A stretch of DNA of 47,148 nucleotides from Sanchytrium tribonematis (lineage: Eukaryota): positions 1 through 47,148 of the forward strand of contig JADGIG010000018.1 in assembly GCA_018985235.1 (NCBI GenBank), written 5' to 3'. Shown here in pieces: positions 6,356-43,785 of this stretch. The position numbers and the translations under genes were made by a program. Below the pieces are notes generated by a model. It was given only the letters and a program-made list of their open reading frames with translations. It was not told the DNA's origin and did not search any database. Positions within the stretch are counted from its first letter, which is position 1; the number at the start of each line of letters is the position of its first letter.

Positions 6356-7329
6356 TTAATGATAAAACTCTTGATTAAATTCTTGTGGGTCATAAACGTC
6401 AGTTATATTCTGATTCTGGAACTGAGTTCTATGCTGAAAGGAGAAACTTTCACCGTAACTTTCAGGTGGTGGAAACCAGGGCTGATGAGATTCGATGTAT
6501 TGGCCCTTTTCATAAATACAAGGCTCGGGTTGACTTTGCGAAATATATGCCCGAGGAGCACCAGAATATGGAGAATAGGGTATCTGGGGTATTGGATTAA
6601 AATTTAAAAAATCCATATGGAGATGTTCAAAAACTGGGGTGGTGTCTGCAGTGGATGGAGTTGGACACTGAGAATTATACTGAGATGTATTCAAGCTAAT
6701 TGAAGGTATGCGACTTTCGAAATTTTCACGAAAATTTTCGGGATCGTTGCTCTCGATTGGATTAGGTGGTGGAGGTAACATCTTAAACTGAGAAGTTTCA
6801 TTAGAAGCTGGCTTCAGAGAGTAGTTTGATTTTGGATTCGTGTGATGATTTTCTCCATATGGCAAATTTTGCTTAATCTTCTGCGTCATATTCATATGGG
6901 AATATTTTGGTGCGAGATTATGGAATCCAAATTTCAGCAAGAAGTGCGGTAGATCCTAAATTAAAAAAATATAACTTCTTTTGGGATAAAGTCTAATAAA
7001 AAGTCATAATGGTCACTTTTTAATAATGCTGCACTTATATCATTTCGTTGTAAAGTTCTTCTTTTGCCTTCCTGAGCAGAAAGCCAGGCTCTCGAGGTAA
7101 GTTCTTGAACAAATAATTCACAAGCTTTAGAGCAAATTAACGGGGCATCGGTACTTATAACTAAGCCTGAAAATGTTTCTGTAAGAATCGTCATTGCCTT
7201 TTTTACTCTTGCCAAAGGCATCGGATATGCAGTACCTTTTCTTTCAGAGAGCTTCCCAGAGTACGCCTCCTCTCTTTTACGTTTCCAAAATGCATTCGTT
7301 AATGCATTGTAGTGACTGGAGGAATACAT
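6356..7329 (-). CDS. HAP5: NF-YC/Hap5-like CCAAT-binding histone-fold subunit; 2 exons (7329-6976, 6955-6356), 317 aa
   Basis: PLARVKKAM...DAPLICSKACELFVQELTSRAW...KRRTLQRNDI...DFLLDFIP; removing a 20-nt intron joins it in frame to ORF 6356-6940; start 7329 inferred. Confidence 0.8.
6956..6975 (-). other. 20-nt spliceosomal intron
   Basis: GTTATATTTTTTTAATTTAG; phase 0, joins IPKE|DLPHF in frame; the only GTT donor, and exon 2 has no recognised homology. Confidence 0.7.
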
Positions 7330-7605
7330 TGTGGGCTTTCGAACAATGGCTTGATCCAATATATAAAAGACGCCAAAGACCACAAGAGCAAAAGAATTTG
7401 CCCCGAACCAACCGGTTGTCACTAACTCATCGCCAAATAGTTGCCATTTTTGCCCAATTTCAATGAATCACTAAATTCGCGAATTATTTGTGATTTCGAG
7501 CCAATGAATGATAGATAATTATTTTAGGATTAATTATAGGAAAATCTTAACTATTGCTATTCATGCAGAACAATTCTTATCTTGTATCCCCTTGATATTT
7601 TTAAA

Positions 7606-8352
7606 ATGTCGTTTCATGGATATTATAATCGGCAGCACGCAAATTCTCGTAGATATGTACCCAAATATATTTCAGAAGATATATCGGACTCAGATCGTCA
7701 CTATAAACCTAATGCTTATGGAAAACAGAGCGAAAGACATTATTTCGAAGATGTAAATGACTCTGTTCACTCACTAGACCCAAGAAAATCAACTTATTTT
7801 CAAGAAGTATTTATTAAAAATGAATTTCCCAATTTAAAAGTAGTAAACTTGGAGACTCTTGTGCCTATAAATCAAGACAATCTCACGCCAATTTTACATA
7901 AATATCACCCAGACTCATATGTAACTATCAAATACCAATATATTGCTATAATGTTTAAACAAGAACTCATAGAAAGTATTAATTTTAAGATTGATAAAAA
8001 GAGAAACGAAATAATAATCTCTGGTTTTGTTAAATTCCCCAATATTCTTGACCTGGGTAGAAAAAACACAAGGGCAATGAAGCTTCATTCTGATCAAGAA
8101 TGGTTTGGAATAAAGCCAAACTATCCTTTCACAAATCTCGAGACTTCTGTAAGAACAAAATTTTGCAGGGTTCTCAAATTTGAATACAATATCGTCAAAC
8201 CGGCATACCTTTACACCCAAGTCCATGAAGGAGAATTTTTAAGAATCAAGGAGCATCCTCCTTATGGATCCTGGCCTCCAAATAATACTCAATCAAAATT
8301 AAAATATGTAATTTTTGCAAAAGATGAATTTGCCCTAAGAAATAAAAACTAG
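7606..8352 (+). CDS. Hypothetical protein
   Basis: ORF with AAAATG start at 7606; 3' end overlaps the cullin stop codon. Confidence 0.65.
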   Translation: MSFHGYYNRQHANSRRYVPKYISEDISDSDRHYKPNAYGKQSERHYFEDVNDSVHSLDPRKSTYFQEVFIKNEFPNLKVVNLETLVPINQDNLTPILHKYHPDSYVTIKYQYIAIMFKQELIESINFKIDKKRNEIIISGFVKFPNILDLGRKNTRAMKLHSDQEWFGIKPNYPFTNLETSVRTKFCRVLKFEYNIVKPAYLYTQVHEGEFLRIKEHPPYGSWPPNNTQSKLKYVIFAKDEFALRNKN

Positions 8353-10416
8353 CATATTAAAGTCTACCTCATCCCGTTTTATATACTGCCTTTCTATTAA
8401 GGAATCGATGGACTCTTTGATTGAAGTCAAATTCGGCTTAAATTGCTTTAAGGAGGAGCTGATTACTTCAGCTACTAATTTCGAGTGTGGAATAATTTTT
8501 CTTTCTTTCATAATCTTAGCAATCAGAGCCATTAAATAATATTTTCGATCTTGTTTAATTTGGTTTGAAATATCTTCTGCTTCAACATTCGATTCTAAGA
8601 TAAAGGGAATTTTAATTAAAAACTTTTTTGGTTGAAATTTCATGTTCAAAATTATTGAATTACCCTGCTCTAGAACGATACCCAATGCTGCCAGACTTTT
8701 CAAGTACGTTTTGTCGCCTACTTCTTTGAATTGGTTGCATGAAATTGAATCTAAGAGGTAAAAACAAGGAAGGGGGCAGTCAATTTCAAAGCTTGCTTCT
8801 AAAGAACACTTCAAAATTACTCGAGAAAGTTGATGGTGCCATTTAAGACGTCTCCCATTGTGTAAATCATTATAATATTTAGAAAATTCATCAACCTGAG
8901 CCTTGTACAGATTGGGTGGAAGTATCTCTTGAGAAGTTTCCGACACTGGCCACGAACCAGTTGTTAAAATTGTAGATGAAAAATCATTTCCCTTGAAATT
9001 CCGGCTTAAATCTGCAGAAATATCAACATCTTGAAGCATTTTCTGAAGTTTGACAGTATATTCTTGACCGTTTATCTTTTGAAATTCAAGAATTTGGGCG
9101 CTTTCCAATTCCTTTATGCTTACACCGCCATTTAGCAATCTTTTTGAGAGAAGCTTGCTATAATGCAACAAAAATAGATCCTTATCAGTCACATAGCGGA
9201 AAAAATCTACTGCGATTGGCAGATATTCAACATCCTTACGTTTGCGAATAATATAATCAAAGTATTTCGCGAGGTAAGTAGCGATATTCATAGGCATTTG
9301 AGTTGAATTTAAAAAAATAACAAAGCCTTGGTCCACTGCAGCAAAGCAATCGGCATTATTTTGAAAAGCAATCTTAATGTATTCTTCAAATATAGTTTTC
9401 AAACCCTTACAGTCCAAAATAAATTTAGTAGGATCTTGTAGCAAAGTGCTAGAATGTTTACGAATAATTTCTGAACCTTTATAATCAACTTGTTGGCTCA
9501 ATCCACGTTTCAAAAATTCAATTCCATTTTCAAGTCTATTTAACAATAAAAACGCAACTTCAGAGTTTTCATGATCTAACTTTTGAATAAAAGACGGAAG
9601 GCATGCTACTATCTCCTCTCTTATAGGCTCCACCAAAATTGAATTAATTAGTCCTTGATACTTTGGAAACGTAATTTCAATTAAAAGACTTTCTGCCAGT
9701 TTGTCTTCTGCTTTGATCGTCTTCAATACTTGATTCATCTTCAATATGATCTCTATATTATTGAAGGACAACTTCGTATTTCGATAATAAATTTCTGTTT
9801 CTGACAAAAACGATTCCTCGAAATTAATCTCATAATAATAAAATGGACTTCCTGTTTGTAAACCGACGTCATAAAAAGAATGAACAGCAGACTTTAATCT
9901 GTTTAGATTCAAAGAATGAAATGAGTCAACTTGGCCTCTTAAATTTTTAATCTCTTGAATGCAAACTCTTGAGAATTGGTTTCCTACATTCATTTTTTGT
10001 AATAAATTGTATTCCCAAAAATGCAAACCAAGTCCAAATATATTCATCCTTTGATAATTTCCGATTCTAGAGCTCGATTTGTCGTCAAATTCATCTTCAT
10101 GTTCACTTACAAAGTCGTGGCTTCTTGTAATGATTTTATTAAGCCCAACACATACTTTATCAAGAATCAAAATAGCGTGATAATATCTTTCCCAATAATC
10201 GCTGTATTCAAGCAATTCGACATCTGTTTGTTCTAGGGTATACAATGTTTTGTTACAAAAATTTTCCAAGTATTTTGCTAATTCTTGATAAAGAGTTTCA
10301 TGCCTCTCGGCTCTTATGCATTCATAAACTGATTTATATATTTTCATAAAATAAGGCTTTTCTTTTGAATGTAATAAGTTGTGTAAATGGCAAAGCACAA
10401 TTTCAATAAATTCCAT
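8335..10416 (-). CDS. Cullin (Cul1/Cul2-like) E3 ligase scaffold
   Basis: DKDLFLLHYSKLLSKRLL, KLQKMLQD, LTTGSWP, GRRLKW, neddylation motif IAKIMKERK, LIERQYIKR. Confidence 0.93.
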   Translation of the reverse strand: MEFIEIVLCHLHNLLHSKEKPYFMKIYKSVYECIRAERHETLYQELAKYLENFCNKTLYTLEQTDVELLEYSDYWERYYHAILILDKVCVGLNKIITRSHDFVSEHEDEFDDKSSSRIGNYQRMNIFGLGLHFWEYNLLQKMNVGNQFSRVCIQEIKNLRGQVDSFHSLNLNRLKSAVHSFYDVGLQTGSPFYYYEINFEESFLSETEIYYRNTKLSFNNIEIILKMNQVLKTIKAEDKLAESLLIEITFPKYQGLINSILVEPIREEIVACLPSFIQKLDHENSEVAFLLLNRLENGIEFLKRGLSQQVDYKGSEIIRKHSSTLLQDPTKFILDCKGLKTIFEEYIKIAFQNNADCFAAVDQGFVIFLNSTQMPMNIATYLAKYFDYIIRKRKDVEYLPIAVDFFRYVTDKDLFLLHYSKLLSKRLLNGGVSIKELESAQILEFQKINGQEYTVKLQKMLQDVDISADLSRNFKGNDFSSTILTTGSWPVSETSQEILPPNLYKAQVDEFSKYYNDLHNGRRLKWHHQLSRVILKCSLEASFEIDCPLPCFYLLDSISCNQFKEVGDKTYLKSLAALGIVLEQGNSIILNMKFQPKKFLIKIPFILESNVEAEDISNQIKQDRKYYLMALIAKIMKERKIIPHSKLVAEVISSSLKQFKPNLTSIKESIDSLIERQYIKRDEVDFNMLVFIS

Positions 10417-10443
10417 GATATACTTGTTTTAAAAAAGATTTAC

Positions 10444-12094
10444 TCACATTCTAAATAGCCCAAATTTGGTGTCTTTTTTGGATTCTGCAATACAGACATC
10501 GAGCGCTACACTTAGCACTTTTCTTGTATCTTGAGGTCTAATGATTCCATCATCCCACAATCTGGCAGAGGAGTAATAAGGATGTCCTTCTTTTTCGTAT
10601 TTCTCTACGATGGGTTTTTTAAATTGAATCTCATCCTCCGCGGACCAGTTTTCGCCTTTTTTAGTCTTGGTATCTTTGGTAATCTGGCTGAGGACTCCTA
10701 AATAAAATAAAACTACCAGCTGCTTGTTCCCCACCCATTACACTGATTCGAGAATTTGGCCACATGAACAAAAACCTTGGCGAGAATGCTCTGCCACACA
10801 TTCCATAGTTTCCCGCTCCGAATGATCCGCCACATAAAACAGTAATTTTAGGAACATTAGTAGTACTAACAGCTGTTACCATTTTTGCGCCATGTTTAGC
10901 TATTCCCTCCGCCTCGGCCTTAGATCCTACCATAAACCCTGTAATGTTTTGCAGAAAAATTAAAGGAATATTTCTCTGCGCACAAAGTTCAATAAAGTGA
11001 GCCCCTTTCATAGCAGACTCTGCAAATAAAATTCCGTTATTAGCAACTATGCCAATAGGAACTCCATTTAGATGAGCAAATCCTGTTATTAAAGAAGTTC
11101 CATACTTAGCTTTGAATTCGTGTAATTTTGAACCGTCGACAAGTCTAGCAATAATTTCGTACATATCAAATTGTTTACGAAGATTGGAACCCACAATTCC
11201 TGGAATTTCTTCAGCAGAATACAAAGGATCTACTGGAGCTTTCAATAACAATTGAGTTTCTTTCTTCCAATTTAGATGATCAACTATATTACGACCGATA
11301 TCCAATGCATGTTCATCGTTTATAGCATAATGGTCAGTTACACCTGAAACCTTGCAATGCAGATCGGCCCCACCAAGGTCTTCCGCGGATATGATTTCTC
11401 CAGTAGCTGCTTTAACTAATGGTGGGCCTCCAAGAAATACTGTTCCTTGGTTTTTGACAATTACGTTTTCGTCCGACATAGCTGGCACGTAAGCACCACC
11501 AGCTGTACAGCTTCCTAACACAATTGCTATCTGTGGAATATTTTTTGAGCTCATATTTGCTTGATTAAAGAATATTCTTCCAAAGTGCTCACGATCAGGA
11601 AATACTTCTGCCTGATTGGGTAAATTTGCACCACCACTATCAACTAGATAAATACAAGGTAAACGATTTTCCAGAGCTATCTCTTGAGCACGAAGATGTT
11701 TTTTGACAGTTATTGGATAATAAGTTCCTCCCTTGACTGTAGGATCGTTGCATACAATCATGCAATATTTGTTTTTGATTTTGCCTATTCCGGTAATTAT
11801 TCCACCGCAATTGATATCTTCCTTATACAATTTATGACCAGCAAATTGTCCTATTTCTAAAAAAGGGCTATTAAGGTCGAGTAATTTGCTTATTCTTTCT
11901 CTTGGCAAGAGCTTTCCTCTTTTAACATGTCGATCTCTTGCTTCTTTTGAACCCCCTAAAGAAATGGCTGCTGTCTTAATTTGTAGATCTTTTAATATGG
12001 GTTCCATACTTTTCAAATTTTCTTTGAACAGAACTTCCGAAGAATCTATTTTAGTTTGCAAAACATTAAATTTTCTTTGCAAAAATCTACGCAT
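10444..12094 (-). CDS. MCCC2: 3-methylcrotonyl-CoA carboxylase beta subunit; 2 exons (12094-10717, 10697-10444), 543 aa
   Basis: [63 protein letters not shown]; 19-nt intron restores GEQAAG-VL. Confidence 0.95.
10698..10716 (-). other. 19-nt spliceosomal intron
   Basis: GTAGTTTTATTTTATTTAG; removal gives the conserved [10 protein letters not shown]. Confidence 0.92.
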
Positions 12095-12166
12095 GTTACA
12101 AAAATTCAACTTTAACCCAATATTTATTGAACAGCTTCATTTTCTCAAGTAGATTTTGAGAAACAT

Positions 12167-12874: not shown

Positions 12875-13007
12875 TTGGATTAAGGAATCACTACAACTTT
12901 AAGAATTTTTTTGTTCCTAATATTTTACTTTGATTGGTTTAAGATACTGGTTTCAGAACAATTAGCCCTAGCGCGAATAAATTCGATGAAAGAAATTTGA
13001 AATTCTT

Positions 13008-14101: not shown

Positions 14102-16388
14102 ATGAGTTCATCTGATCACCCAAATTCTTTAAGTGCAAATCGCCTTAGGACATACTCAATCCGGCATATTAAGACCCCATCCGTTCAACTTCATAGAAAA
14201 GGTAGCCATGATTCGCAAAGAAAGAAATTTTTTGTAGATGTAGAGTCCACTATTCAATTGCTATTAGAGCAGGAGGACACAGATAAGAATTACCAAATCA
14301 ATGTTCAGGATGAGGGTCCGAAAACTTTTAACCTGGTTGGACCTGGGCTAAAAACTCATAGCGTCAAAGGGCACTATGTGCTATCAAATTTGTTACAAGA
14401 ATTGACTTTAGCCAGAGAATATCACCGAAAACATATAATTTTGGATGAAGAGCGTCTCTATGAAAATCCTGTAGAGCGACTTTCAAGAATGATCCGAACT
14501 TTATTTTGGGATGGATTGACAAGAAGAATAGACGGAGAATCTTTGGAAAATATATGCAATGACCCCAAAGATAGACTTGGTGATCACAAGAATAGAATTT
14601 ATGTTCCATTTGATGACATAGATGCTTTGGAATATTTTCAAGGAGTTCAAAACGAGAAACCGCATTTGAAGTTAGAGGTAGAAAGGCTTCCGAAAGATAT
14701 CACACCACAATTTGTTAAAAGCATTAATCTGAAACCCGGTATTCTTGCTTTGAAGCTAGACAAGCTGAGTTTTATTAATGATGAAGGTCAGATCATTTCT
14801 AAAGTTGTGGGGACACCATTTGTTGTTCCTGGTGGTCGCTTTAATGAGATGTATGGTTGGGATTCCTACTTTGAGGCACTAGGACTTTTAGTTGATAACA
14901 AAGTTGACTTAGCCAAGGCTATGGTTGACAACTTTTGCTACGAAATTCAACATTATGGTAAAATTATGAATGCCAATCGCTCTTATTATTTAACTAGAAG
15001 TCAGCCCCCATTTTTAACAGACATGGCAATCCAAGTTTATTATCATTTACCGCAGGCCAATTCTGAAGAAAATAGAAAGTGGCTGAGACATGCGCTATTT
15101 TTTGCAATTAAAGAATATTATACAGTTTGGATGGCAACACCTCGATTCGACCCGGAATCTGGTCTCAGCTGTTATCACCCCACCGGTATAAAGTTGCCAC
15201 CAGAAACAGAAAGTTCTCACTTCAATCACATCTTGGAACCATATGCCAAAAAGCATGGTATAGGTTTACAAGAGTTCACAGAAAAATACATGTCCGACGA
15301 GATTTTAGAACCTGAGCTAGATCAATATTTCACACACGATAGAGCAGTGCGCGAAAGTGGGCACGACACGACGTATAGATTAGAAAAAGTTTGTGCACAT
15401 CTGGCAACTATTGATTTGAATAGCTTACTATTTAGATATGAGGTCGATATTGCGATGATGATTCAGCAGGAATTTAACGGAAAATTTGAGATTCCTATAG
15501 AATGGGTTCAAGCTAGCTGTTTTGCGACAGACAATCTAGATAAACACAAAACATTGATCTCTGAATCGGCACAAACTTGGTTCACCAGAGCAGAAAAACG
15601 TAAAGAAAGAATTGACAAGTATCTTTGGAATGAAGAAAAAGGTCTCTTTTATGATTATAATGTTGTGTTGAAAGCGCCTTCGCAATACAATTCCTGCACA
15701 ACATTTTGGCCTCTGTGGGCTGGTCTTGCGACAGAACAACAAGCAAAAATCATGATAGAAAAAGCTCTGCCTTTATTCGAGGTTACTGGTGGCTTAGTGA
15801 GTGGAACGGAGCAAAGCAGAGGTCTCATTTCACTTTCTAGACCAAATAGACAATGGGATTGGCCTTATGGGTATTTGAAACTAATATAGTTGGGCACCAC
15901 ATCAAATTTTAGCATGGCAAGGACTTGAGAGGTACGGGTATAATGATATTGCTAGAAGATTGGCTTATAGATGGCTTTACACCATTACCAAGAGTTTCGT
16001 CGATTATAGTGGGGTAGTACCTGAAAAGTTTGATATTGTTAATATGACTCATTTGGTGAAAGTAGAGTATGGCAATGTGGGCGTAGATTTTAAATATATG
16101 CCAAAAGAAGGGTTTGGTTGGATGAATGCATCTTATCAAGTTGGGCTGACATATTTAACAAAATTTATGAGGCGAGCTTTAGGTGCATTATCAGAACCAG
16201 ATTATCTTTTTAATGTTATGAACGATTCTTCCAAATGGCAAGAGCAGGATTCTATTGCACAGCAAAAAGGGAGTTTCGATAATTTACAACAATTGTTTGC
16301 ACCATTCGGAAAATCGGTAAGAGTAGTGAGTGAAGAAAGTTTGCTTGATGAGACTTTGTCAACTGAGGGTGCAAAGTTTTTTATCTAA
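14102..16388 (+). CDS. NTH1: Neutral trehalase (GH37); 2 exons (14102-15870, 15890-16388), 755 aa
   Basis: EDTDKNYQI Ca-binding region, VVPGGRFNEMYGWDSYF, RSQPPFL, RESGHD, EGFGWMNASY; intron removal restores QWDWPYGWAPHQ. Confidence 0.95.
15871..15889 (+). other. 19-nt spliceosomal intron
   Basis: GTATTTGAAACTAATATAG with CTAAT branch-like motif; restores PYG-WAPHQ. Confidence 0.93.
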
Positions 16389-16426
16389 GTGTGACTCTAA
16401 GTAAATCGCGTTACATGTTAAATTTA

Positions 16427-18588: not shown

Positions 18589-18594
18589 ATTAAT

Positions 18595-21985: not shown

Positions 21986-22804
21986 ATGCCACAGGATTTT
22001 AAGGTTAACCAAGACATTTTTATTACTCAAAGAGGAGGGAAAATTCAACTAGAACCTATTAAAGCATATGCTAGGGGCTCATTCGAGTATCCCATGCAGC
22101 CAATTTTATTAGATAATAATTTAGCAGCAGTCCAAGACACATTTTTATATGAAATTCAGGACAGACATTTGTTATTGTCGAAAAAATTAGGCGTATTCCA
22201 AGCTGAATTTGAAAAATGGACTGCTGAAAAGCAATTGATGATTAAATTGTACAATGAAGAAAAGGATCGTTATAATTCACACAAGGAAAAGTTTACAAAG
22301 TTTATAGAGGAGAACAGAGTCAAAATGAAGAGGTCACAGAGGAAAGCAGAAGAGGAAATTAAAACGAGGATCGAAACAGAGGCTAAGATTAAGGAACTCC
22401 AAGGAGAAATTCAACATAGTAGCCTAGAAATGGAAAAATTAGTCGCAGATTGCAAAAGTAAGAAAGACCTTGAAATCATTTTGGAAAATACTATTAAACA
22501 CGATACAAAAAGCACATGCTATAGAGTTTCAACTTGGATTAGTCACGCAGAATCTCTGTTGGAACAACATTGTAGTATAAAAAATACTGTCAGCGATTCT
22601 AGATATGATGGTGAAATAGACAAAAATCCAGAAAGCAAACGGCCCAGTGATTCCAAGATTGATATCGGCTTTGAAGAGAATCCTACTTCGAGCCTCGAAA
22701 CAAGTCAAATTAAATTGTGCATAGAAACGTTGTGCAATACTTTACATTGCAAATCAGAGTACCTGCATTATGTTATTAAAGATTTTGCCGATACAGTTCA
22801 ATAA
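21986..22804 (+). CDS. DUF4200 coiled-coil protein (CFAP73/CFAP100/CCDC42-like)
   Basis: KFTKFIEENRVKMKRSQRKAEEE...EAKIKEL matches the DUF4200 pattern; AAAATG start at 21986. Confidence 0.65.
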   Translation: MPQDFKVNQDIFITQRGGKIQLEPIKAYARGSFEYPMQPILLDNNLAAVQDTFLYEIQDRHLLLSKKLGVFQAEFEKWTAEKQLMIKLYNEEKDRYNSHKEKFTKFIEENRVKMKRSQRKAEEEIKTRIETEAKIKELQGEIQHSSLEMEKLVADCKSKKDLEIILENTIKHDTKSTCYRVSTWISHAESLLEQHCSIKNTVSDSRYDGEIDKNPESKRPSDSKIDIGFEENPTSSLETSQIKLCIETLCNTLHCKSEYLHYVIKDFADTVQ

Positions 22805-23587: not shown

Positions 23588-25478
23588 TTATTGTGGTCGT
23601 CTATATGGTTGCTGCATACCAGGTTGAGGATAATAATAACCTCCAAGTTGCATATTGGGCATCTGTTGATTCATCTGAGGTGGCATTTGTTGTGGCATAC
23701 CGGGGGACATACTTGGTTGCTGCTGCATTTGCGGCCTAACCTGACCCTGCATTTGTTGTGGTTGCATTTGCTGCATTTGACCTTGTATTTGTTGTTGGGG
23801 TATTTGCTGCATCTGACCTTGCATCGGTTGTTGTATTTGGTTTGGCATCATTTGATATGGTGGCATCATTCCATAGGGAGGCCTAAATTGTCCCATGTTT
23901 GGCCTCTGGGGCATATACATACCAGGCTGATACATGCCCATCATATTTGGCCTAAAATTACCAGTCATTTGTGGTCTTTGAAATTGGTTTGCATATTGAG
24001 GATTTGTACCCCGCATGCTAGGACTCCCCATGGGCTGAGCATACATTAATGGAGAATTCTGTGGCTGTTGTTGTGGAGTATTTGATGGTTGAGAAGGGTT
24101 CATTTGTTGTTGTGATTGAGCTTGATTAGCAATCGCTTGGGGAGGTTGATGTTGAACTTGCGGTTGCTGCTGTTGTGGCTGTTGTTGTTGTTGTTGTTGT
24201 TGTTGTTGCTGCTGTTGCAATGGTGCTTGTGAAGATGCTTGTTGCATTGGCTGCTGTGACATTGGCTGAGGAACTTGACCTGGAGGAGGATTTTGTTGAG
24301 TTTGAGCATAGGATGGACTAGCATAGCCTAGGCATTGTAGAATATCTTGTGGAAATTGAGTTTTTATCATAACTAATCCCAGCAGTCTATTGTTATTCAT
24401 AAATATACAGAATCCGTGAAAATTATCTACATTCTTAACAACCGCTACCTTTCTTTGCTCTTGAAGATTTCGTCTAATATTTTCAAATTGAGGAGTATTT
24501 TGGTGGTCTTCGAAGGAAACTATAGGAATATGATTTGTCTGAACATATCCTTGTAAAGTGTGTATGTTGACTGTAAAAAGACCGAAAATATTAAGACTTG
24601 GAGGCCACTGAGCGCAATTACTAAATTAAAATGAAATACAATTGAGCTGGGTCGTGCTTTGAAATTGGAGTAGCAATGACAGACGATACAATATCATTCA
24701 GTTGGATTTGGCCAGTCCACAATGGGGAAGTAGGAGCAAAAGATGGCTGCATTTCGGGAGACTGATGTTCACTCAAGGCATTGGGTCCAGGATAGTAGTC
24801 TTGTGGTTGCGGTATCATCATACCCGGAGCCATATGCATATTTTGGTGTATAGGCATTCCCATAGCACCCATCATGTTCCCGTTTGCCACATTAAGAGTT
24901 GGGTCGCCATATGTAACAGAAGCGGGAATTCCACCGTTGCCTTGAGATAGTGATGGAATTTCATTTACAAATAATTTGTCCATAATAACAGTATAGTTAG
25001 GATTGCTTAATTTCCAGCCATTTGTACTTAGTTCTTCAATAGGTTTGAGTCCCTTTTTACATAAAATTGATAAACTTATAGTCTCCTCCATCATTTTTTC
25101 CAACAGAGTTTCCATGCTTGTTATATTTTCGTCATTAGTTGGCTTTGAGAAACCATCTGAAAATAATGTATTTGTAATAACAATAATATGTCTCTGTCCG
25201 ACCAAATTTTTTAAACTGTTGTAGGCTAAGAATAGTGCATCCATTAAAGGATTTGCCATCGGACTCAAATGGTCAAATTGAATTTCCGCAATTTCTTTTA
25301 AGGAATCTGCTAGCGAGGCTCTGGACCTGACTTTGGCACTTCCGACGTGGTACGTCACAAGAAGACATGGCAGATTCATATTAATTTCTGCTGTGCTAAG
25401 GATATTATTTAAAATAGGGAGTGTTGTCGTCTTTACATTTCGATTGGCTATTGATTGATCCAAAACGAGGCAGATCAT
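23588..25478 (-). CDS. Med25-like Mediator subunit (VWA + ACID/PTOV-like + Q/P/M-rich tail); 2 exons (25478-24640, 24620-23588), 623 aa
   Basis: A 19-nt intron joins two track ORFs through an open 24620-24401 segment; QRHIIVITN and ISLSILCKK resemble the Med25 VWA; LWTGQI...WPPSLNI resembles the ACID domain. Confidence 0.65.
24164..24217 (-). repeat. CAA/CAG trinucleotide tract encoding poly-Gln
   Basis: (TTG)n/(CTG)n on the + strand, encoding QQQQQQQQQQQQQPQQQQ. Confidence 0.9.
24621..24639 (-). other. 19-nt spliceosomal intron
   Basis: GTATTTCATTTTAATTTAG; removal gives DPAQF-NCAQWPP and an open frame to 23588. Confidence 0.88.
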
Positions 25479-25543: not shown

Positions 25544-26864
25544 TTAACGGAGCAAACGCGTTGGATTTGTAGATTTTGAATGCTGGAACACTTTCCAGCA
25601 CTTGAGTCTTCCATCTGCAGCGGCTGTGCAAACAGTTTCGTTGTCTGGGCCAAGTGCAGCATAAAGCACTCGACTTGTATGTGCTTGAAACGCAAATAAT
25701 TGCTTCAGAGAAACTGAAGAATGTTCAAATAATCCAAAATTTGACAAAGATTCTGAACTATTGTCAGAGTATTTCCACACATGCATCATATTTTGAGAAT
25801 ATCCATGCGTAGAACATATTTCAGAGGTGCTTTTCGACCATAGAATATTACACACTTGTGAAGATGTGTCTATATTGACAAGCAATGCATTTTGGGCAGT
25901 ATCCCAAATTTTTAAACATTTGTCCGCTGTTCCACCACCTGTAGCCAATATAGACGGCTACGTGAATATAAAATACCTTGTTAGGTGACCATGAAACCGC
26001 CTTGACAGCCGCATTGTGTTCATGAACACCCACGGGCTGACTAGGATGCCTTAAATCCCATACCATAAACACATTGTCATTCCCACCTGATGCCAAATAG
26101 TTGCCTGTACTGTTGAACGCAAGTCCACAAATTTCTTGTTTGTGTTTCTCAAATTTTAGTATAGGGCTTTTATCGTTGCTGTTAATATCATAAACGTAAA
26201 CATTTTTGTCTCTACATCCAGCGGCTAACACGCTTTCTGATTTCCAATCAAGACATCCGATTCGTTGAGACAATTTTGCTATTAAATTACCTCCAGAAGA
26301 AACGCCGCTGGAAAGGTCTTTATATTCTAATTTTCCTTGATGAGTTCCTATACCCATTATTGATCCGGTGGGATTATATCGCATACTAGTTATGTGATCA
26401 TTTTCTAGGGAATAAAACTTGTAATTTAGATCATTTCCAGGATTCAATATATATAAATTACTACTTAGACCAATTCCAATCAGTCCTTGTGGAGACCAAT
26501 CTAGTACATTAAGATAGTAATCATCCATGATGTCTTCTAGTTGGTATTGCTTTATAGGAACTTTTGAGTGCCTCAATCTGTCTATTATAACATCTTTTTT
26601 TATTTCAAGAGTTGGTGGTTGTCTAATAAACTTTTTACTTGTAACTGACTTTGATTTTAAATGATTTCTTGGAAATAAAACGCTAGAATATATAGATTTG
26701 TTTAATCTACTGGGTATCATTCTGTCTTTGGTAGGCGTTACGAAAGAATCCTTTCGGAATTCGTCTTCATCGTCTTCTATTCTTCTTTTCTTCTTGACTG
26801 GGGTTTTAAACACATCTTGATGCTCTGGAGGGCGATTATTTCTCTTTGGGGTTGAAGCAGACAT
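25544..26864 (-). CDS. APC/C activator of the Cdc20/Cdh1 (Fizzy) WD40 family; 2 exons (26864-25977, 25957-25544), 433 aa
   Basis: C-box DRMIPSR, DDYYLNVLDWS, HKQEICGL, LASGGNDN, AAVKAVSWSP, LATGGGTAD, HTSRVLY, LR tail. Confidence 0.93.
25958..25976 (-). other. 19-nt spliceosomal intron
   Basis: GTATTTTATATTCACGTAG; restores WSPNK-PSILATGGG. Confidence 0.92.
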
Positions 26865-29310: not shown

Positions 29311-29733
29311 ATGAAGTGGTATGACGACTCCGCTGCTCCTCTGGAACCACCAAAAGATAGCGAACCTGCAAGAATTCAACCGCAAACAATATACAGAACA
29401 AATTACGGAAAAAAGATACACGCTGAAGACCTCCGAAACGAGCCGAAAGAGCCAATTGCATTTAAAAATTTTGTCTCCGTCACTACTGACAATCCGGGTT
29501 TTCATTCAAAAAAACGCAAAAAAGACACCGTTCTCAGAGTGGATGATCCTATGTATCATCAATTGAAGAAGCAGTCTAGAATCCCTTCATATTCAGGTGA
29601 ATTCCCAGCTAATAGATTTCTACAATCTCCTGGATATAGATGGGATGGCGTCGACAGATCAAATGGATTTGAAGAAAGATATCTGACTATACAATCAGAC
29701 GAAAAAGTAACAACCTACAAAGATGAATTATAA
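29311..29733 (+). CDS. BUD13: RES complex splicing factor Bud13/Cwc26, very short (140 aa)
   Basis: [29 protein letters not shown]-terminal signature. Confidence 0.88.
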
Positions 29734-31385: not shown

Positions 31386-32348
31386 TTATAAAAAATATTG
31401 TCCAGCAGTCTTCTGCTGTGGTATTTTAGACTGGTCCATTGCGACAGCATTAAATAAACCAAATGAATCATCCTCTACCCTAAGATTTTCACCTACTTTA
31501 AGATATGATGCAACATTTCCACATCTATAACAATAATTTGGTGCAGACCAGACAGTGACGCAATTTCTGTCCAAAAAATGAAACTTGTAGCCGTCCTGTA
31601 CTAATTGGTGCGCTCTGCAAATAACAGTTAGATCATTCACAAAATTAAATTCGTTAGTTACTCGGGATCCAAAGAGGTAGCCAGCACCTCTTGGAGATAT
31701 CGACCAGCCTTCTATATCATCTGGGTCACTCCACATAAGGTCACAAAAAGTACCTAGATGTGGAATTTCATGATGTCTTCTAATTGTCCGTATTTGATCC
31801 AAGGTTCTTACATCAGGACTTAGACCACCATGAACACACATAATCCTTCCATCCACAATAGCTCCTAAGGCCAAATGATCAAAGACTTGGCAACAAAGTC
31901 TCCAAACAACTGCAGACTAAATCAATAAATATGTACTCCATATTTTTGCAAGCATTCATCATAAAATCCATAGACTTCCGTGATCTTTCTGCTTTCATGG
32001 TTTCCTCTTAATAATAAAATATGCTGAGGGTACATGACTTTGTACAACATTAATAATGTGAAAGTTTCTATTGAATGGTAACCTCGATCAACAAAATCTC
32101 CCATGAATACATACTTTGTGGCAGGCAACTCTCCCGATCGCTTAAATAATTCCAGGACATCGTAAAATTGACCATGTACTAAGTAAATTCAATATACCAT
32201 CTCCACAAATTGTGACAGGTGCACTTATCGGTTGAACATTACTTTCTTCAAGTAATATAGATATACATAGCTGTGTTAAATGCTTTATTTCATGTTCTGG
32301 AAGTAATTTGCCTTCTTCAAGGATCGCAACGCTTTTTTTAAAGTCCAT
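31386..32348 (-). CDS. SIT4: PP2A-like Ser/Thr phosphatase catalytic subunit, PP6/Sit4 type; 3 exons (32348-32198, 32178-31937, 31916-31386), 307 aa
   Basis: After splicing: [48 protein letters not shown]-terminal YFL. Confidence 0.85.
31917..31936 (-). other. 20-nt spliceosomal intron
   Basis: GTACATATTTATTGATTTAG; restores [18 protein letters not shown]. Confidence 0.92.
32179..32197 (-). other. 19-nt spliceosomal intron
   Basis: GTATATTGAATTTACTTAG; restores the invariant metal-binding motif GD-VHGQ. Confidence 0.95.
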
Positions 32349-32847: not shown

Positions 32848-32880
32848 AATAATGAAAATTTAATCTCCCCTTATTCCAAA

Positions 32881-34515
32881 ATGACTGAAATATCAACATC
32901 TGCAACTGTTGTAGGAGTTCTTGGAGGCGGTCAACTCGGTCGTATGATGCTAGAAGCAGCTAACAGATTAAACATTAAGCTGCTATTTCTAGATAGTGTA
33001 GATTCACCAGTAGCAAAAGTTTCTAAAAATTTGGTAGAAGGGTCATTTAAAAACAAAGACGATGTCAAAAAATTGGCAAGCCAATGTGACTTATTGACCA
33101 TAGAAATCGAACATGTCGAAGTAGAAGCACTCAAGAAATTAAATGTTCAACCGAGGGTTGAAACAATAGAATTGATACAAAACAAGTTTACTCAAAAAAC
33201 ATTCTTTTCGTCTAGAGTTCCTTGTCCCAGATTGATGGAAATTAATGACACAAAAGATCTTGAAAAGGCTTCAAATATGTTTGGTTTACCTTTGATGTTG
33301 AAACGAAAGTATAACTCCTATGATGGAAAAGGTAATTTTGTAGTCAGAAATGCATCAGATTTTGAAAAATCTTTAAAGGATTTGGGCAATGAAGTTTTTG
33401 CTGAAAAATGGTGCGACTTCGAAAGAGAGCTATCGGTTCTAGTCGTCAAATCTGAGAATGAGTTAAAGACTTATCCAGTGGTGCAAACCCACCATCGGGA
33501 CTCAATATGTCATACAGTAATCGTTCCTGCTCCTGTTAGTGGTGATATACAAGAAAGAGCCACTAAGGTTGCCGAGACAGCTGTGGCATTGCTTTCAGGC
33601 TACGGCATTTTCGCGGTAGAATTATTTCAACAAAGGGATGGCAGTATTTTATTGAACGAAATTGCACCAAGACCACACAATTCTGGACATTTAACGATAG
33701 AAGCCTGTGAGACATCCCAATTCGAAAATCACTTGAGAGCCATTTTAAATTTACCACTTGGTTCGACTGCTCTGAAAGTACCAAATGCAGCGATGGTAAA
33801 TATAATTGGGGCGTCTAATAACGTTGACTGTATTATGAGCCCGGTCAAGCAGGCACTCTCCATAGAAGGATCAAGTATTCATCTTTATGGAAAAGCAGAA
33901 TGCAGAAAGGGTCGCAAAATGGGACATATTACTATTACTGCAAACAATAAGCCTCAACTTTTACAAAGACTGCAGCCTCTTTGGGATAGTGTCGGAGGTT
34001 CACCTTTAAAATCAAATAATTCCCCACTAATTGGTGTCATTATGGGCAGTGATTCAGATTTGCCAAAAATGAAAGATTGCTGTGAGATTTTAGAGCAATT
34101 CAATGTTCCTTTCGAAGTGACCATAGTCTCTGCTCATAGGACTCCCGAAAGGCTTAGCCAATATGCTCGAACCGCTTACGAGAGAGGCTTAAAAGTCATA
34201 ATAGCAGCTGCTGGAGGAGCAGCTCATTTGCCAGGAATGGTTGCCAGTATGACGTGTCTTCCTGTAGTTGGAGTGCCAATTGCATTAAAACATTTGGATG
34301 GAGTAGATAGCTTACATTCCATAGTACAAATGCCCCGTGGTGTTCCTGTTGCTACTGTCGCCATTGACAATGCTACCAACGCAGCCCTATTAGCAGTCAG
34401 AATTTTAGGAGGTGATTACTCTTCACAAATGACAGTATATCAAACAAACATGAAAAATGTTGTTTTAGAAAAGGCAAAGCAACTTGAATTGAAAGGATGG
34501 TCTTCATTCTTATAG
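32881..34515 (+). CDS. ADE2: Phosphoribosylaminoimidazole carboxylase (PurK-PurE fusion)
   Basis: [64 protein letters not shown]. Confidence 0.97.
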
Positions 34516-35154
34516 TAAATTTTCGTCCTCCAAGCTGCAAACGAGGTATCTGATCCTTTCCAAGCATTCATTTAATGGTCCTGTATTTTTAATTACAATG
34601 TTAGCCAAATTCTTTTTCTTTTCAATTGACATTTGCACATCGACTCTTTTTAGCATTTCTTCTTCATCTTCCGTTAAGTTCGAAATTTCTGTGACCTTTG
34701 CTTTTCTCATTCTTGATAAAAGTCTCAGCTTTTGAGTTTCTTTATCAACATAAACAACCCAAATTTGATTTGCATATGTATTCAAGTGTGATTCAAATAG
34801 TAGCGGGATGTCAAAGAAAACGTATTTATGCCCCAAAATCGCTAAATAAATGTACTGCCAAAACATAGTCCAAATTACAAACGGATGAGTTATTCGGTTC
34901 AAAGTCTTTCTTTTGGACTCGTTATTAAATACAAGACTTGCTAATTTGCCACGGCTAACCTGGTTCCCGTCAAAAACTTGATTGCCGAAAAAAATCCAAA
35001 CTAAATAGTAAGATAAATGATATTTGTGGAACAGCTTTCTAGCTATTTCGTCTGCGTCAATAATTTTACAGCCCTGCTCTTTGAGATAGTTTGTAACTGT
35101 AGTTTTTCCCGTGGCAATTCCACCAGCAATTGCGATTCTGAAAGGTAATGGCAT
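34510..35154 (-). CDS. CAB5: Dephospho-CoA kinase
   Basis: [32 protein letters not shown]. Confidence 0.93.
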
Positions 35155-35194
35155 TTTTGTTTGAAAAAATTAATTTAAAACAAGTTGAACCACA

Positions 35195-37121
35195 ATGCAG
35201 CAGCCAAGATTATTTCAATCTTTCAACAGAAACAAAAGCAGCACACAAAAGAAACTTTTGACTCCATTATTTCAACCACAACAACTTCCAGATTTTAGTG
35301 AGGATGAAAAACCAGTCAAGCCCCTTAACAATATTACGAACATTGCCAATTCACCTTCACTGAAGGCTAGATTCAAGAATAATATTAATGAATCGAGCCA
35401 GCTGAAGAGAGAATTCAAACCTAGACAAGATTATGACAGTTTCCAACTTAGCGAGAACGACTCGATGTTTAATTTTGAGCATTCAGCCCAAATTAAGCAT
35501 CGCGCTGAAAATGAAATCGCTCGAACTCCTCCAACCAAGGAGAGGAAACCGCAGCCTTATCCTACTCCTGATGAAAACAATTTGTTCGACTTTTTCAACC
35601 ACATGAAGTCTCTGATGGAAAAGAAAACCCAACTAGAATCAGAAAAAAAAGATTTGAAAAATATTGTCGAAACGCAGGGAAATGATTTGGAACAGCTGAG
35701 AAAAATTGAAGCTAAGTCTGTTGAGTTTATTAACGAATTTCAAAATAACAAACAATTTATTGAGACAAGACTTGGAGAGATAGAGAAATTTTCTCAATAT
35801 ATGGCAACTACAGTTAAAAACTTAAAAGTTTCGTCTGACGCAGCGTTATTAAAAAGAAATGAGTTTGAAATTGCTAACAAACAATCGATTGAAAAAATGC
35901 AGAATGATTTGGAAGAAAAGAACATATCACTGTCAAACACAATTCTTATAAACCAAAAATTGATAGAAGAGAAAAATACCTTGTCTATCAAAGTCGCATC
36001 GTTAGAGGACAAAATCAATGCGGAAGCTTTGGTCTTTGTCGACTTTAAAGCTAATTTTTGCGAATTGCAGGATAAGCACCAAAAATTGGAGATAGAATTA
36101 ATCGATAAAAAGTCTAAAGAAAAAAACGTGAGTCAACTTTTGCAACTTCATGAAGATGAAATTGTTAGCCTTAAAGCGGAAAACAAAAAACTGAGACTTT
36201 ATGTTAAAGATTTGGAAACGGCAAACTTAGTAGTGCTTAATGAAAAAGCAAAACTTGAAGATTCTGCCAGAAATTGTGATGCTAGTCTTTTCGAGTTAAA
36301 AGAATCCTTAGGGAAAGCAGAAAATGATCTGGAAATAGCTGGGATTAACTTTAACGAGTTAAATATTAGATATGCTGCTCTCTCCTCAACCAGCAAATCT
36401 TTAGAAAACAAAATTAAAGACTTGGAAATGAATGGCGCAGATGCGAAGAAACTGACTGATAAATTTGAAATATTATACTTGTCTATATTAAAATTGAACG
36501 AGGAAAAGCAATCATTGATGACATGTATTGCATCCATGGAAAAATCTCAAGCCGAAATTTCCACTGAACTGAGAAAAAAAGGCGAATTTAAAACTGGCGA
36601 ATCTATTGAAAAACACTCTCGGTACCTTTTTCTAATGTAGCCAAGAGCAGGATTTAAAAAAATACAAAGATATTTTAAGCTCTATTTGCGTTCTGTTAAA
36701 TACCGATGATGTTGATACAGTAATTCAGTCTGTAAGAAAACTAACAAACGATGTTGTTAATCTAGAAATTTCCTTTGAGCATTTGAAAAGGGAATATGAA
36801 GCAGTTTTAAACTCTGAGCTGAAATGCAAAACGAGAGTTGAAAATTTGCAAAAAGAGAATCAAGAAAAAAATACCTTAGTTTTTGATTTAAATAGCAGAT
36901 TGGAACGATCGCAAATTGAGAATAAGGATCTCTTGAAAGACATCAACAAACAGAAGGAATCGATTCAATTATTACAAATTGAGGCAAGAAATAAACAAGA
37001 ACGAAACAGGAATCAACTTGATACCCCAAAACCTCGAAAAAGAAGTTCAACTGGGCTAAATTCTACCCAAAAGAAAAAACAAAAGTCTGTCAGATTAGAG
37101 TCTGACGTTGTATTTTATTAG
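35195..37121 (+). CDS. Long coiled-coil protein; 2 exons (35195-36621, 36641-37121), 635 aa
   Basis: Heptad-rich E/K/L sequence; a 19-nt intron joins the two track ORFs in frame; basic NLS-like C-terminus. Confidence 0.75.
36622..36640 (+). other. 19-nt spliceosomal intron
   Basis: GTACCTTTTTCTAATGTAG with CTAAT; removal gives HSR-QEQDLKK and an open frame to 37121. Confidence 0.88.
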
Positions 37122-37134
37122 TAAATCAAACATT

Positions 37135-37644
37135 TTATTGAAATTGGGATAAAAATGTATCTGCTACGACTCTGGCACGAGCATTTAAGCTTAATCTCAT
37201 TTCGGACATTTCTTTGTCAATTTCCTCCAAAAAAACACACACAAATTCTACTAACTTCATTCTGATCATTTCCGTACAGTGATAAACTGTAATCAAAAGA
37301 CTCAAATCATACCCTGGAACTGCTTTTCTTCTTAGAACGCTGAACTCCTCAGCTCTGATCATCAAAAATCTGGTAAATTTTTTGTTTAAAATTCTTTCAA
37401 TGTCATCGCTTTGCTTGAGCTTCATGGATATACGGATCGAGTTGATGCTGGTTTCAATTAAAGTGTATTCAGCCTCATTTCTTGCAATCACAATAGGATT
37501 TAAAAGTACTTCTTCCGAATTTCGGGTCTCTACTTCAGGTTTAATATGACGTTCAACTATTTGTGAGGCAAAGTGCTGCAGGCATAAAGACGCATTCAAG
37601 CTACTTCGTAAAGCGGTGATATACGGGCGAAGACTTTGACTCAT
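37135..37644 (-). CDS. ARPC4: Arp2/3 complex subunit 4
   Basis: [52 protein letters not shown]. Confidence 0.97.
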
Positions 37645-37836
37645 TTTTAAGTTTCAAAAATTTATTTTGTCCGCAAATATATCAATTTGACTTGTCAAAT
37701 GGCTCGAAGTTTTGCTCATCGACCAATTTCTCACAGAACTGGGTCGTCTGATTGTTACTTCATCTAATATCGTTTTGCCTGTTAATTGGTCTGATTGGTA
37801 TTAAAAAGTCAGACCCCGTTTTCACAGTTCTCACGT

Positions 37837-38433: not shown

Positions 38434-38450
38434 TAAATTTTATGGACTAT

Positions 38451-40961: not shown

Positions 40962-41161
40962 TACAAGGAGAAGTTGGCAAATAACAAGATATGGAATTAG
41001 AAGATATTTCTATTCCCCCAAGAAATATACATGGCTATCGACTCATTAAAATTTTGATCAAAAACTTATTCAAAAAAATCTTAACATTTTGAGAATTTTC
41101 TTTATCTCAGCCATAACTTCTTTGTACTGTAATTCAATTTTGGTAGACTCGGTTTTTTGTG

Positions 41162-41797
41162 ATGTATAAACATTTATTTTCAAATAGGCCTGAAATGTTT
41201 TCACCAAAAGATTCGAAATTTAATATTCATGAAAAAGTCTATAGAAAGAAAACTGTCGTAGTGGGTGAGGGAGAATGTGGAAAAACTTCTCTTCTATCTG
41301 CCTACGTGAATGATAAATTTCCAGAAGAATATGTTCCAACGGTTTTTGAAAACTACTCCAAACAATTAAAGTTCGGGAAAAAGACAGTAGAGTTACATCT
41401 ATGGTAAATCAAGTATTAATTTAGGGACACTGCTGGTCAGGAAGATTTTGACAGATTAAGGCCTTTAAGTTACGCCGATGCAAATTGTGTCTTGGTATGT
41501 TTTAGTGTTAACAGCAAGTTAAGTTACGATTTAATTGCAGACAGATGGATCCCAGAAGTTCAGCATTTCATAGATTGCCCTATATTACTGGTGGGACTCA
41601 AAAGCGATTTGAGAAATGAAGATGTTGATTGTGTTTTGGAGCACGACGCCAGACTTTTAGCCGATAGACTAGGCTTAGCTGGATATATGGAATGTTCTGC
41701 TAAAACGATGGAAAATGTAAATGCAATTTTCAACAATGCCGCATACTTGTGTATGAAAAAGAAAGGCATTATGACTAGAATCTGCAAAACCTTATAA
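41162..41797 (+). CDS. Rho-family GTPase (Rho4-like); 2 exons (41162-41403, 41425-41797); alternative start 41195
   Basis: [58 protein letters not shown]. Confidence 0.93.
41404..41424 (+). other. 21-nt spliceosomal intron containing an in-frame stop
   Basis: GTAAATCAAGTATTAATTTAG; restores the invariant LW-DTAGQE. Confidence 0.95.
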
Positions 41798-41838
41798 TAA
41801 ATTAATTAGTTCTCATTTGCCAAGGGGCACTATTCAAA

Positions 41839-42465
41839 ATGGCGCAAATAAAATTATACTCGTATTGGAGATCCAGTTGCTCTTACCGAGTGAGAATAGT
41901 GCTTGGTTTAAAAGGCATAGACTATGATTATATTCCAATTAATCTTATCAAAGCAGAACAAAATTCAGAGGAAAACTTAAATCGAAATCCTATGGGCCTC
42001 GTTCCTACTCTCGAAGTTGACGGCGTACATATATCTCAGAGTATGGCAATTATGGAATATCTTGAGGAAAATTACAAATCAGTAATGCTTTTCCCTCAAG
42101 ATTCCATCGGGAGAGCAATAGTTAGAGGAATGTGTATGATTATAGTTGCTGACACTCAGCCTTTACAAAATTTGAAAGTTCTCAAGACATTTGAAGATCC
42201 AAAAAGAAAAGAATGGGCAATCAAGGTTATTTCTGATGGATTATTTGCTTTTGAAAAAATGGCCAAAAAATACAGCGGAAAATATTCTTATGGATCTACG
42301 GTAACCATCGCTGATGCTTGTTTAGTTCCACAAGTCTACAATGCGAAACGCTTTGAAATCGAGATGGACAAATTTCCAACAATTTCGATAATAATGGCAC
42401 ATCTTGAGGATTTGGAAGGAGTTCAGAAAGCCCATCCTCAACACATGATTGATGCCGTTCAATAA
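41839..42465 (+). CDS. Maleylacetoacetate isomerase / GST zeta
   Basis: LYSYWRSSCSYRVRI, NPMGLVP, QSMAIMEYL, QPLQNL, ADACLVPQVYNA.RF. Confidence 0.95.
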   Translation: MAQIKLYSYWRSSCSYRVRIVLGLKGIDYDYIPINLIKAEQNSEENLNRNPMGLVPTLEVDGVHISQSMAIMEYLEENYKSVMLFPQDSIGRAIVRGMCMIIVADTQPLQNLKVLKTFEDPKRKEWAIKVISDGLFAFEKMAKKYSGKYSYGSTVTIADACLVPQVYNAKRFEIEMDKFPTISIIMAHLEDLEGVQKAHPQHMIDAVQ

Positions 42466-42509
42466 ACCCAATACAAACTTTTTAAAAATCTTTCACACAA
42501 AGGGAGGTA

Positions 42510-43785
42510 ATGGATAGAACCGGCATTCCGAAGAAGAGACGAAAGGTGACCAAAGCATGTGTTTATTGCCGAAGGAGTCATCTAACATGCGACGATGGGC
42601 GGCCTTGTCAAAGATGTATAAAAAGAGGGATAGCTGGTCTGTGTAAGGATGAGCCAAGTAGTAAAACAAACAACAATAACAATAAGCAACCTCCAAATCA
42701 ATTCTATCCAAGCCTTCAATTCAATGCTATCAACACTCAAAACGAAGCCAACTTTTTTGGGCAACCCGGACAAGTAGATTTTGATGTCCCATTATTTGCG
42801 AAACCACAAACCACCACAATGGCATCCCCGAATATTCCAGACCTGCCCTTGATAAACCCATTTGAGTCACCTATAGCTATGATGCAAAATATCAATCCTT
42901 TCTTACCGCAACAAGTAGAACCTGCCAATTTTTCCCAAAGTGCTAAACAATTAAATCAATCTCAACCTCAACCTCAGCCAAACATTCAAATCAAAGTTCC
43001 AGAGCAAACGAAAGCCATGAGTCCTTTGCAGCAAAGTATCCAGTTGCAAGGAAGTCCTATAGTAATCAAGTCAGTTATCCCAGATCAGACCTTTATTAAT
43101 ACAAATTCCAAAAATGTAAAATCCCCAGAAGAATGTGTTGAGATAAGCGCAGATCCATACAGCGCTCTCCCAACATTAGGTTTAAGACAAATTATTCAGG
43201 CAAAATTTGAGGCTGGCCTTCTAAAGCCTTTTAACTATGCTCAATCCTATCACGAACTGCTCTCACATATGAAAAACTTTTCCGACAAAAATAGATCCAG
43301 AGTCCTGCTCTGCATATCCAAATTTAGGCCTTACTTCAGAGAAATTTCGGGAGCTCAAAATGATGTGGACCTCATTTTAGTAGAGGAAAAATTCGAGAAA
43401 CTACTAATAGAGTACGATAGAGTACTTTCGTGTATGGGGATGCCGGCGGCGTGTTGGTAATTTAAATTTAAGTAGGAGAAGAACTGGAGAGATATATAAA
43501 GCTAACCGACAATTCTGCCACTTGGTTGGTAAGACTAGAAATGAATTATTAAAAATGAAGATATTTGAACTAATGAACGAAGAGAGTTGCGTGAATTATT
43601 GGGAAAGGTATTCCGCAATTGCTTTTGATTCTGGCCAGAAAGCAGTTCTCACTGCTTGTGTCACATCTGGTCCAAACCCTATTAATTGCAGTTTTGGATT
43701 TACAGTAAGAAGGGATCAAAATTTGGTACCTATATTAATTATAGGCAATTTATTGCCTACGGATTCGACATTGATGCAATATTAA
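42510..43785 (+). CDS. Zn(II)2Cys6 transcription factor with PAS-like C-terminus, AcuM/Rds2 type; 2 exons (42510-43456, 43476-43785), 418 aa
   Basis: CVYCRRSHLTCDDGRPCQRCIKR...LC, AGLLKPFNY, W-RRTGEIY, YWE..IAFD.GQKAVLTAC. Confidence 0.9.
43457..43475 (+). other. 19-nt spliceosomal intron
   Basis: GTAATTTAAATTTAAGTAG; restores the conserved CW-RRTGEIYKAN. Confidence 0.92.

Follow-up and report, generated by a model that had tools for sequence, protein, structure and literature searches.

Ultra-short introns have been described in several eukaryotes. In the ciliate Stentor coeruleus they measure 15-16 nucleotides (nt), the branch adenosine being nucleotide 10 of the 15-nt introns and nucleotide 11 of the 16-nt ones (PMC9505925), in the nucleomorph of Bigelowiella natans they measure 18-21 nt, at 3.1 per gene, and a 'caliper' has been proposed (PMC6009652), and in Encephalitozoon cuniculi they range from 22 to 76 nt with the branch consensus CTAAYTT (PMC3629993, PMC6349667, PMC2483917). 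A set of mostly early-diverging fungi has intron medians of 29-197 nt (PMC8042348). Here we analyzed a 47,148-nt stretch of DNA (contig JADGIG010000018.1; hereafter the window) from Sanchytrium tribonematis, one of the sanchytrids, small fungi that parasitise algae, in which ten segments of 19-21 nt interrupt protein-coding genes. Judged from the DNA, these segments are very likely genuine spliceosomal introns with U2-type signals, shrunk to near the smallest size that a spliceosome is known to cut.

Ten short segments in nine genes

The window holds 41 genes by our count, is 92.5% coding with a median intergenic gap of 46 nt, and has 36% G+C. A first-pass annotation of this DNA had listed ten GT-AG introns without giving their strand; all ten segments were found where it had placed them, six of them on the minus strand and four on the plus strand, and read in the coding direction each starts with GT and ends with AG. 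They are spread over nine of the 41 genes, as listed here with the evidence for each junction:

6956..6975, minus strand: 20-nt intron, phase 0, in the NF-YC/HapE gene (6356-7329); frame and motif
10698..10716, minus strand: 19-nt intron, phase 1, in the methylcrotonyl-CoA carboxylase beta (MCCB) gene (10444-12094); homolog alignment
15871..15889, plus strand: 19-nt intron, phase 2, in the neutral trehalase gene (14102-16388); yeast alignment
24621..24639, minus strand: 19-nt intron, phase 2, in a Q-rich, VWA-domain (MED25-like) gene (23588-25478); frame and motif score
25958..25976, minus strand: 19-nt intron, phase 0, in the CDC20/CDH1 gene (25544-26864); human FZR1 alignment and Pfam
31917..31936, minus strand: intron 2, 20 nt, phase 0, of the PP6/Sit4 phosphatase gene (31386-32348); homolog alignment
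32179..32197, minus strand: intron 1, 19 nt, phase 1, of the PP6/Sit4 gene, within the GDxHGQ metal-binding motif; homolog alignment
36622..36640, plus strand: 19-nt intron, phase 2, in a coiled-coil gene of no family (35195-37121); frame and motif
41404..41424, plus strand: 21-nt intron, phase 2, with an in-frame stop inside, in the Rho GTPase gene (41162-41797); Pfam and frame
43457..43475, plus strand: 19-nt intron, phase 2, in a Zn2Cys6 + PAS (ERT1/acuK-type) gene (42510-43785); domain order

Seven segments are 19 nt long, two are 20 nt and one is 21 nt, a range of 3 nt that lies, as in ultra-short systems, under about 22 nt, and their interior is 88% A+T. The density is 0.24 introns per gene, or 0.23 per kilobase (kb) of coding sequence, which is not the same measure as the 1.3 introns per kb given for Allomyces orthologs (PMC8476143). 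Removal of the segments left stop-free frames of 204-755 amino acids (aa) in all nine genes, as the first-pass annotation had claimed; if they are retained, nine of the ten shift the frame, and each frame meets a stop 1-42 codons past the junction. Five of the ten are in phase 2 (p ~0.05 at an assumed 22% phase 2), and the mean relative position within the gene is 0.56, with no 5' bias.

Homologs align across the junctions

After removal, the joined exons were collinear with homologs to the exact residue at six junctions (both in PP6 and those in MCCB, trehalase, CDC20/CDH1 and Rho), one of the ten (ERT1/acuK-type) is backed by domain order alone, and three (NF-YC, MED25-like and coiled-coil) rest on frame and motif. 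The earlier claim that conserved motifs are restored at seven junctions thus stood to the residue for six, while at the seventh, in the ERT1/acuK-type gene, it came down to domain order. Among the 120 PP6 homologs listed, 91 were full-length (295-330 aa); junction 1 was gap-free in all 91 and junction 2 in 90, and the proposed cuts outscored any alternative GT/GC..AG removal of 10-60 nt that leaves no stop. For MCCB the 19-nt cut was gap-free in 114 of 116 homologs; the same cut slid by 3 nt scored almost equally and is disfavoured by the motif alone. An in-frame 16-nt alternative in MCCB, with its GT 3 nt further in, was gap-free in none of the 116 homologs and was rejected. In trehalase, exon 1 runs to yeast residue 628 and exon 2 starts from residue 630, with the split codon between them. 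Residue 295 of the CDC20/CDH1 protein corresponds to human FZR1 residue 366 and exon-2 residue 3 to residue 370, with no gap, and the Pfam positions run from 5 to 189 and then from 190 to 292. Likewise, Pfam Ras positions 1-53 lie in exon 1 of the Rho gene and positions 54-157 in exon 2. In the ERT1/acuK-type gene the Zn cluster is on exon 1 and the ERT1/acuK PAS profile begins at position 7 with exon 2, in NF-YC the histone fold reaches right up to the donor, and the MED25-like gene, whose name is a weak lead from its VWA match only, has its best-scoring motif candidate at the junction. At several junctions longer in-frame donors have equal motif scores, and homology rejects them where testable. 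Because the nearer GT in MCCB and equally good farther GTs in PP6 were both rejected by homology, a length window is suggested.

A shared signal near the 3' end

When the segments were aligned at their 3' ends, T at -3, A at -6, T at -8 and a pyrimidine at -9 were each found in all ten, a pyrimidine stood at -5 in nine, and every segment ended in TAG. Each can be written as GT(A), an AT-rich filler, YTNAnn and TAG, with an A always sixth from the end. At the 5' end, GTA was found in nine of ten and T at +6 in nine of ten. The typical fungal U2 donor consensus is GTRNGT; none of the ten segments has the G at +5 (T in six, A in three, C in one), so this donor type was not found. Both the fixed -6 position and the missing +5 G had been overlooked in the first-pass annotation. 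The invariant A column had played no part in picking the segments. When the intron interiors were shuffled 200,000 times, such a column appeared 26 times and three invariant columns never. If the A at -6 is bulged out, the flanking bases can form 47 of a possible 60 pairs with U2 against 31.9 in shuffles, a value reached in 2 of 100,000, using a U2 branch-binding motif taken from PMC9505925 that may differ from the sanchytrid's own. In leave-one-out scoring with a weight matrix, the ten segments scored from 10.2 to 20.1. U12-type introns are marked by an RTATCCTT donor and a TCCTTAAC branch, and neither consensus was matched by any of the ten segments. On these sequence grounds, the shared signal is a putative U2-type branch point five bases from the intron end.

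Longer introns and further candidates

In order to look for longer introns, 29 same-strand open reading frame (ORF) neighbours were examined for any frame-joining GT/GC..AG removal of up to 700 nt, a test that reaches coding ORF neighbours and that introns in untranslated regions (UTRs) or orphan genes could escape. At the ten known junctions the best joins scored 13.2-20.1 and used the proposed acceptor each time. Among the other 19 pairs, 18 scored 9.7 or less and one scored 13.7. The latter is a 405-nt join (46168-46572, plus strand) between the last two ORFs and is the sole hint of a longer intron. The earlier remark that no longer intron was found therefore held for 18 of the 19 other pairs, and the 405-nt candidate may be an exception.

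Several further sites fit the motif. Those at 35052-35069, 11644-11664 and 12046-12064 lie inside coding stretches, and were rejected; the two in MCCB align to homologs. Two sense-strand GTA..TAG fits, 4992-5010 (minus strand, 19 nt) and 16397-16414 (minus strand, 18 nt), stand just past stops and may be 3' UTR introns or chance. In the Rho gene, an in-frame 24-nt GTA..TAG segment with the branch motif (41164-41187, plus strand) directly follows the first ATG and could be a further intron, provided that translation starts at the second ATG. Another motif-fitting candidate was seen at 46363-46383.

Public annotation and spliceosome genes

All nine truncated gene pieces tested were present in EukProt as exact, separate proteins; when another four window pieces were looked up there, one had an entry and three had none. 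The prediction that such genes would be misannotated as split was thus borne out by nine of nine tested pieces, plus a tenth. In the sanchytrid genome paper, ORFs were predicted from contigs with TransDecoder; in its accessible text the only instance of 'intron' is in the title of a reference and 'splic' does not occur, and the readable supplements add nothing on introns (PMC8371127). Introns are not discussed in the accessible part of PMC10459994 either, and no report of sanchytrid nuclear introns was found in full-text literature, a coverage that leaves most subscription journals outside.

The major spliceosome appears to be encoded in this lineage, from one window gene together with the published annotation table of the relative Amoeboradix gromovi:

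29311..29733, plus strand: Bud13 gene (RES splicing complex), 140 aa; Pfam Bud13, E 5e-19

The window Bud13 is only 140 aa long, and the profile match covers its C-terminal half. Splicing factors in the A. gromovi table were assigned through KEGG numbers. Among its 3,755 rows are Prp8, Brr2, Prp22/16-type helicases, SF3B1, U1-70K, U1A/U2B'', Prp40, both U2AF subunits and BBP/SF1, while Slu7, Prp18, U1C and SNRNP27 have no row in this intron-blind, half-annotated set, a weak absence (PMC8371127). In that table BBP/SF1 is divided between two ORFs of the same contig, the pattern expected of a split gene (PMC8371127).

Relatives and assembly support

The sanchytrid family has two named genera. The placement of the window used the following gene:

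37135..37644, minus strand: ARPC4 gene, intronless; 89% to A. gromovi

The ARPC4 protein is 89% identical to that of A. gromovi and at most 66% identical to those of other named fungi. In a tree of this one gene (28 rows), the window, A. gromovi and three environmental proteins formed a clade (100/100) on a long branch, which specified the 'early-diverging fungus' of the first-pass annotation as a sanchytrid (Sanchytriomycota). As one of the two named genera, Sanchytrium is the likely genus on this placement. In addition, the window PP6 piece shares a 90% cluster with an A. gromovi PP6 piece. Five PP6 proteins of relatives, one of them from A. gromovi, begin only within the last exon, past intron 2. 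Another relative (P0383, 80% identical) departs from the family sequence exactly at the first PP6 donor, and its tail of 5 residues fixes the donor position, not the intron length. That the same PP6 gene is broken in relatives argues against an assembly error.

Scans of viral, genome and metagenome sequence around ARPC4 or PP6 found no sanchytrid relative and one chance bacterial match, and in a further PP6/ARPC4 scan the best 80 of 564 confirmed loci were all at most 68% identical, with no sanchytrid relative. Two protein searches, each of which scored only part of its candidates, were also negative: the top 120 of 7,693 longer proteins contained no full-length sanchytrid PP6, whether spliced or intronless, and the top 120 of 7,999 proteins contained no sanchytrid MCCB. 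The contigs of a sequencing run (X1) carry all ten segments gap-free at a depth of 152-190; the window may itself derive from this run, which is not independent evidence. Within the segments the run differs by one substitution, at position +7 in MCCB, which is not among the fixed positions. Against window positions 5000-43900, the run shows 22 single-base differences and one 10-base insertion at 12112, so that two haplotypes or strains are present.

Other features of the window

A TMA7 gene of 52 aa (5019-5177, minus strand) falls below the usual ORF cut-off and is without the last 14 profile positions. Neighbouring genes overlap by 6-32 nt at 8335-8352, 21986-22017 and 34510-34515, and two other pairs are 0-1 nt apart. 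A DUF4200 coiled-coil gene lies at 21986-22804 (plus strand); this domain occurs in cilia-associated proteins, which makes the gene noteworthy in a fungus whose flagellum is reduced.

Discussion

The first-pass annotation had compared the segments with nucleomorph and heterotrich introns in size, which agrees with the published lengths (PMC6009652, PMC9505925), and had passed over closer parallels in Encephalitozoon, Mikrocytos and myxozoans. The Stentor introns resemble those of the sanchytrid in being AU-rich and narrow in length, with a GUA start and a branch A at -6 followed by a 5-nt tail; they differ in a loop of 10-11 nt, against the 14-16 nt that we infer here, in having no strong branch consensus where the sanchytrid has a fixed YTNA, and in numbering thousands in a free-living ciliate (PMC9505925). 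Encephalitozoon cuniculi is, like the sanchytrid, a reduced parasite in or beside Fungi with few introns and a similar 3' motif, and on our reading of the published table its CTAAYTT would put the A at -6 if AG directly follows. All of its introns are longer, however, its 5' motif is relatively strict whereas none of the ten sanchytrid donors has the +5 G, and its first described set is strongly 5'-biased and in ribosomal-protein genes, while the sanchytrid introns are spread over the gene and none is in RPL10 (PMC3629993, PMC6349667, PMC2483917). The B. natans nucleomorph shares the lengths, the AU-richness and the GU-AG ends but has no motif past GU-AG, carries 3.1 rather than 0.24 introns per gene and is a relic algal nucleus (PMC6009652). 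Mikrocytos mackini and Paramikrocytos are likewise parasites with few introns of very narrow size and conserved sequence (PMC10245619), but these rhizarian introns are 16-17 nt and are cut by a spliceosome of 17-19 proteins, whereas A. gromovi retains U1, U2AF and BBP genes (PMC10245619, PMC8371127). A myxobolid myxozoan and Dicyema, parasitic opisthokonts with reduced splice signals, have length classes of 20-27 nt; their medians are 22-27 nt, and a weak A run shifts from the AG with length where the sanchytrid A stays (PMC13644364). Yarrowia lipolytica also has two bases from branch motif to AG (A at -6) and no pyrimidine tract, but its introns are long (median 204 nt) with a strict ACTAAC (PMC2483917). 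An unrelated GC-rich locus (L019) has, in its PP6 gene, an in-frame 24-nt GT..AG segment with CTGAC at about 5954-5977 (plus strand), from which single very short introns appear to occur elsewhere too.

In the mechanism that we propose, U2 small nuclear RNA (snRNA) would pair with positions -11 to -5, bulging out the -6 A, which would attack the donor. Five bases past the branch A, the AG would serve as acceptor, with no pyrimidine tract and no scanning. The donor has no +5 G and would be recognised mainly as a GT that lies 13-15 bases before the branch A, so that the lariat loop would measure 14-16 nt. Introns would then be defined by a short ruler plus a branch motif, in a genome that is here 92.5% coding.

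Several points weigh against genuine spliceosomal introns of this kind. They are known here from DNA, not from RNA or lariats, and number ten in one window, on which the weight matrix was also trained, with leave-one-out scoring used. No homology spans the junction in the NF-YC, MED25-like and coiled-coil genes, and the NF-YC intron is an exception that starts with GTT and is the weakest of the ten (10.2). A loose form of the motif fits five sense-strand coding stretches of 18-22 nt (four with a GTT start, one with a CAG end) and is therefore not sufficient, though none of the five has both a GTA start and a TAG end. The relatives are known from proteins alone, so the site but not the intron length could be compared. 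No snRNA gene was seen in the window: a search with Rfam produced a single chance match below threshold, and one with ARAGORN found nothing.

If the segments stayed in the message, the genes would be broken, misassembled or rescued by frameshifting or read-through. Public proteins do end at these sites and nine of ten segments shift the frame, but error or decay would not write GT..YTNAnnTAG ten times, and a bypass would put 6-7 extra residues into catalytic motifs that align gap-free in 90-91 of 91 and in 114 of 116 homologs; relatives break at the same sites and a second assembly, from run X1, carries all ten, which makes retention highly improbable. Excision by an endonuclease and a ligase, as in Ire1/Hac1-type or tRNA-type short introns, is less probable still. 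In its favour, the Hac1-type introns of moulds measure about 20 nt; such introns are marked by CNG|CNG-type cut sites with hairpins at both junctions, whereas the ten junction regions share no common fold and have no CNG|CNG junctions, and carry instead GT-AG ends and a branch motif that would pair with U2.

The introns could also be real and the window unrepresentative, with many longer introns elsewhere and 19-21 nt merely a lower mode. This is one 47-kb stretch with ten introns and one ORF pair that allows a 405-nt join scoring 13.7, and E. cuniculi mixes introns of about 25 nt with one of 76 nt (PMC6349667). Against this, all ten introns fall inside a 3-nt range, a window so densely coding leaves little room for longer introns, and 18 of 19 other ORF neighbours lack a good join; we consider this reading unlikely, though less so than retention or ligase-type excision.

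Turning to the origin of the spliceosomal introns, the sanchytrid case is probably an independent member of the ultra-short kind, an independence suggested by its tree position. A further possibility, which we hold only tentatively and think rather doubtful, is that sanchytrids have the shortest opisthokont introns genome-wide (mode 19 nt), that the +5 G contact and Slu7/Prp18 were dropped, and that many introns were gained already minimal. Hints of this are the absences at the PP6 sites, the five phase-2 introns of ten, the lack of 5' bias and the missing Slu7 and Prp18 rows. Yeast Slu7 and Prp18 are dispensable if the branch is close to the AG, and their loss would fit the short branch-to-AG distance. 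In 80 other eukaryotic metagenomic loci (the best 80 of 564), neither PP6 site was found split; 21 of these loci have a break or insertion elsewhere, some being protein insertions. None of 149 other protein fragments breaks at site 1, and 32 of 150 PP6 protein fragments look interrupted four codons past it. These samples concern one gene, favour loci with few introns and contain no DNA known to be from blastoclads.

The sanchytrid introns are possibly the shortest in fungi, below any fungal intron in the literature searched, and, if so, a fungal lineage joins the short list of eukaryotes that splice near the physical limit. At 19-21 nt they would undercut the 22-nt minimum of Encephalitozoon and the 22-nt median that is the animal record (PMC13644364). 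A branch at -6 is common to ciliate, microsporidian, yeast and sanchytrid, which points to a hard lower limit on the branch-to-AG distance, a limit that thereby becomes separable from that on loop size. The cost to annotation is that nine of the 41 window genes appear as split pieces among the public proteins, and, since the sole sanchytrid genome paper predicted its ORFs without allowing for introns, its inventories of gene loss may hold false losses.

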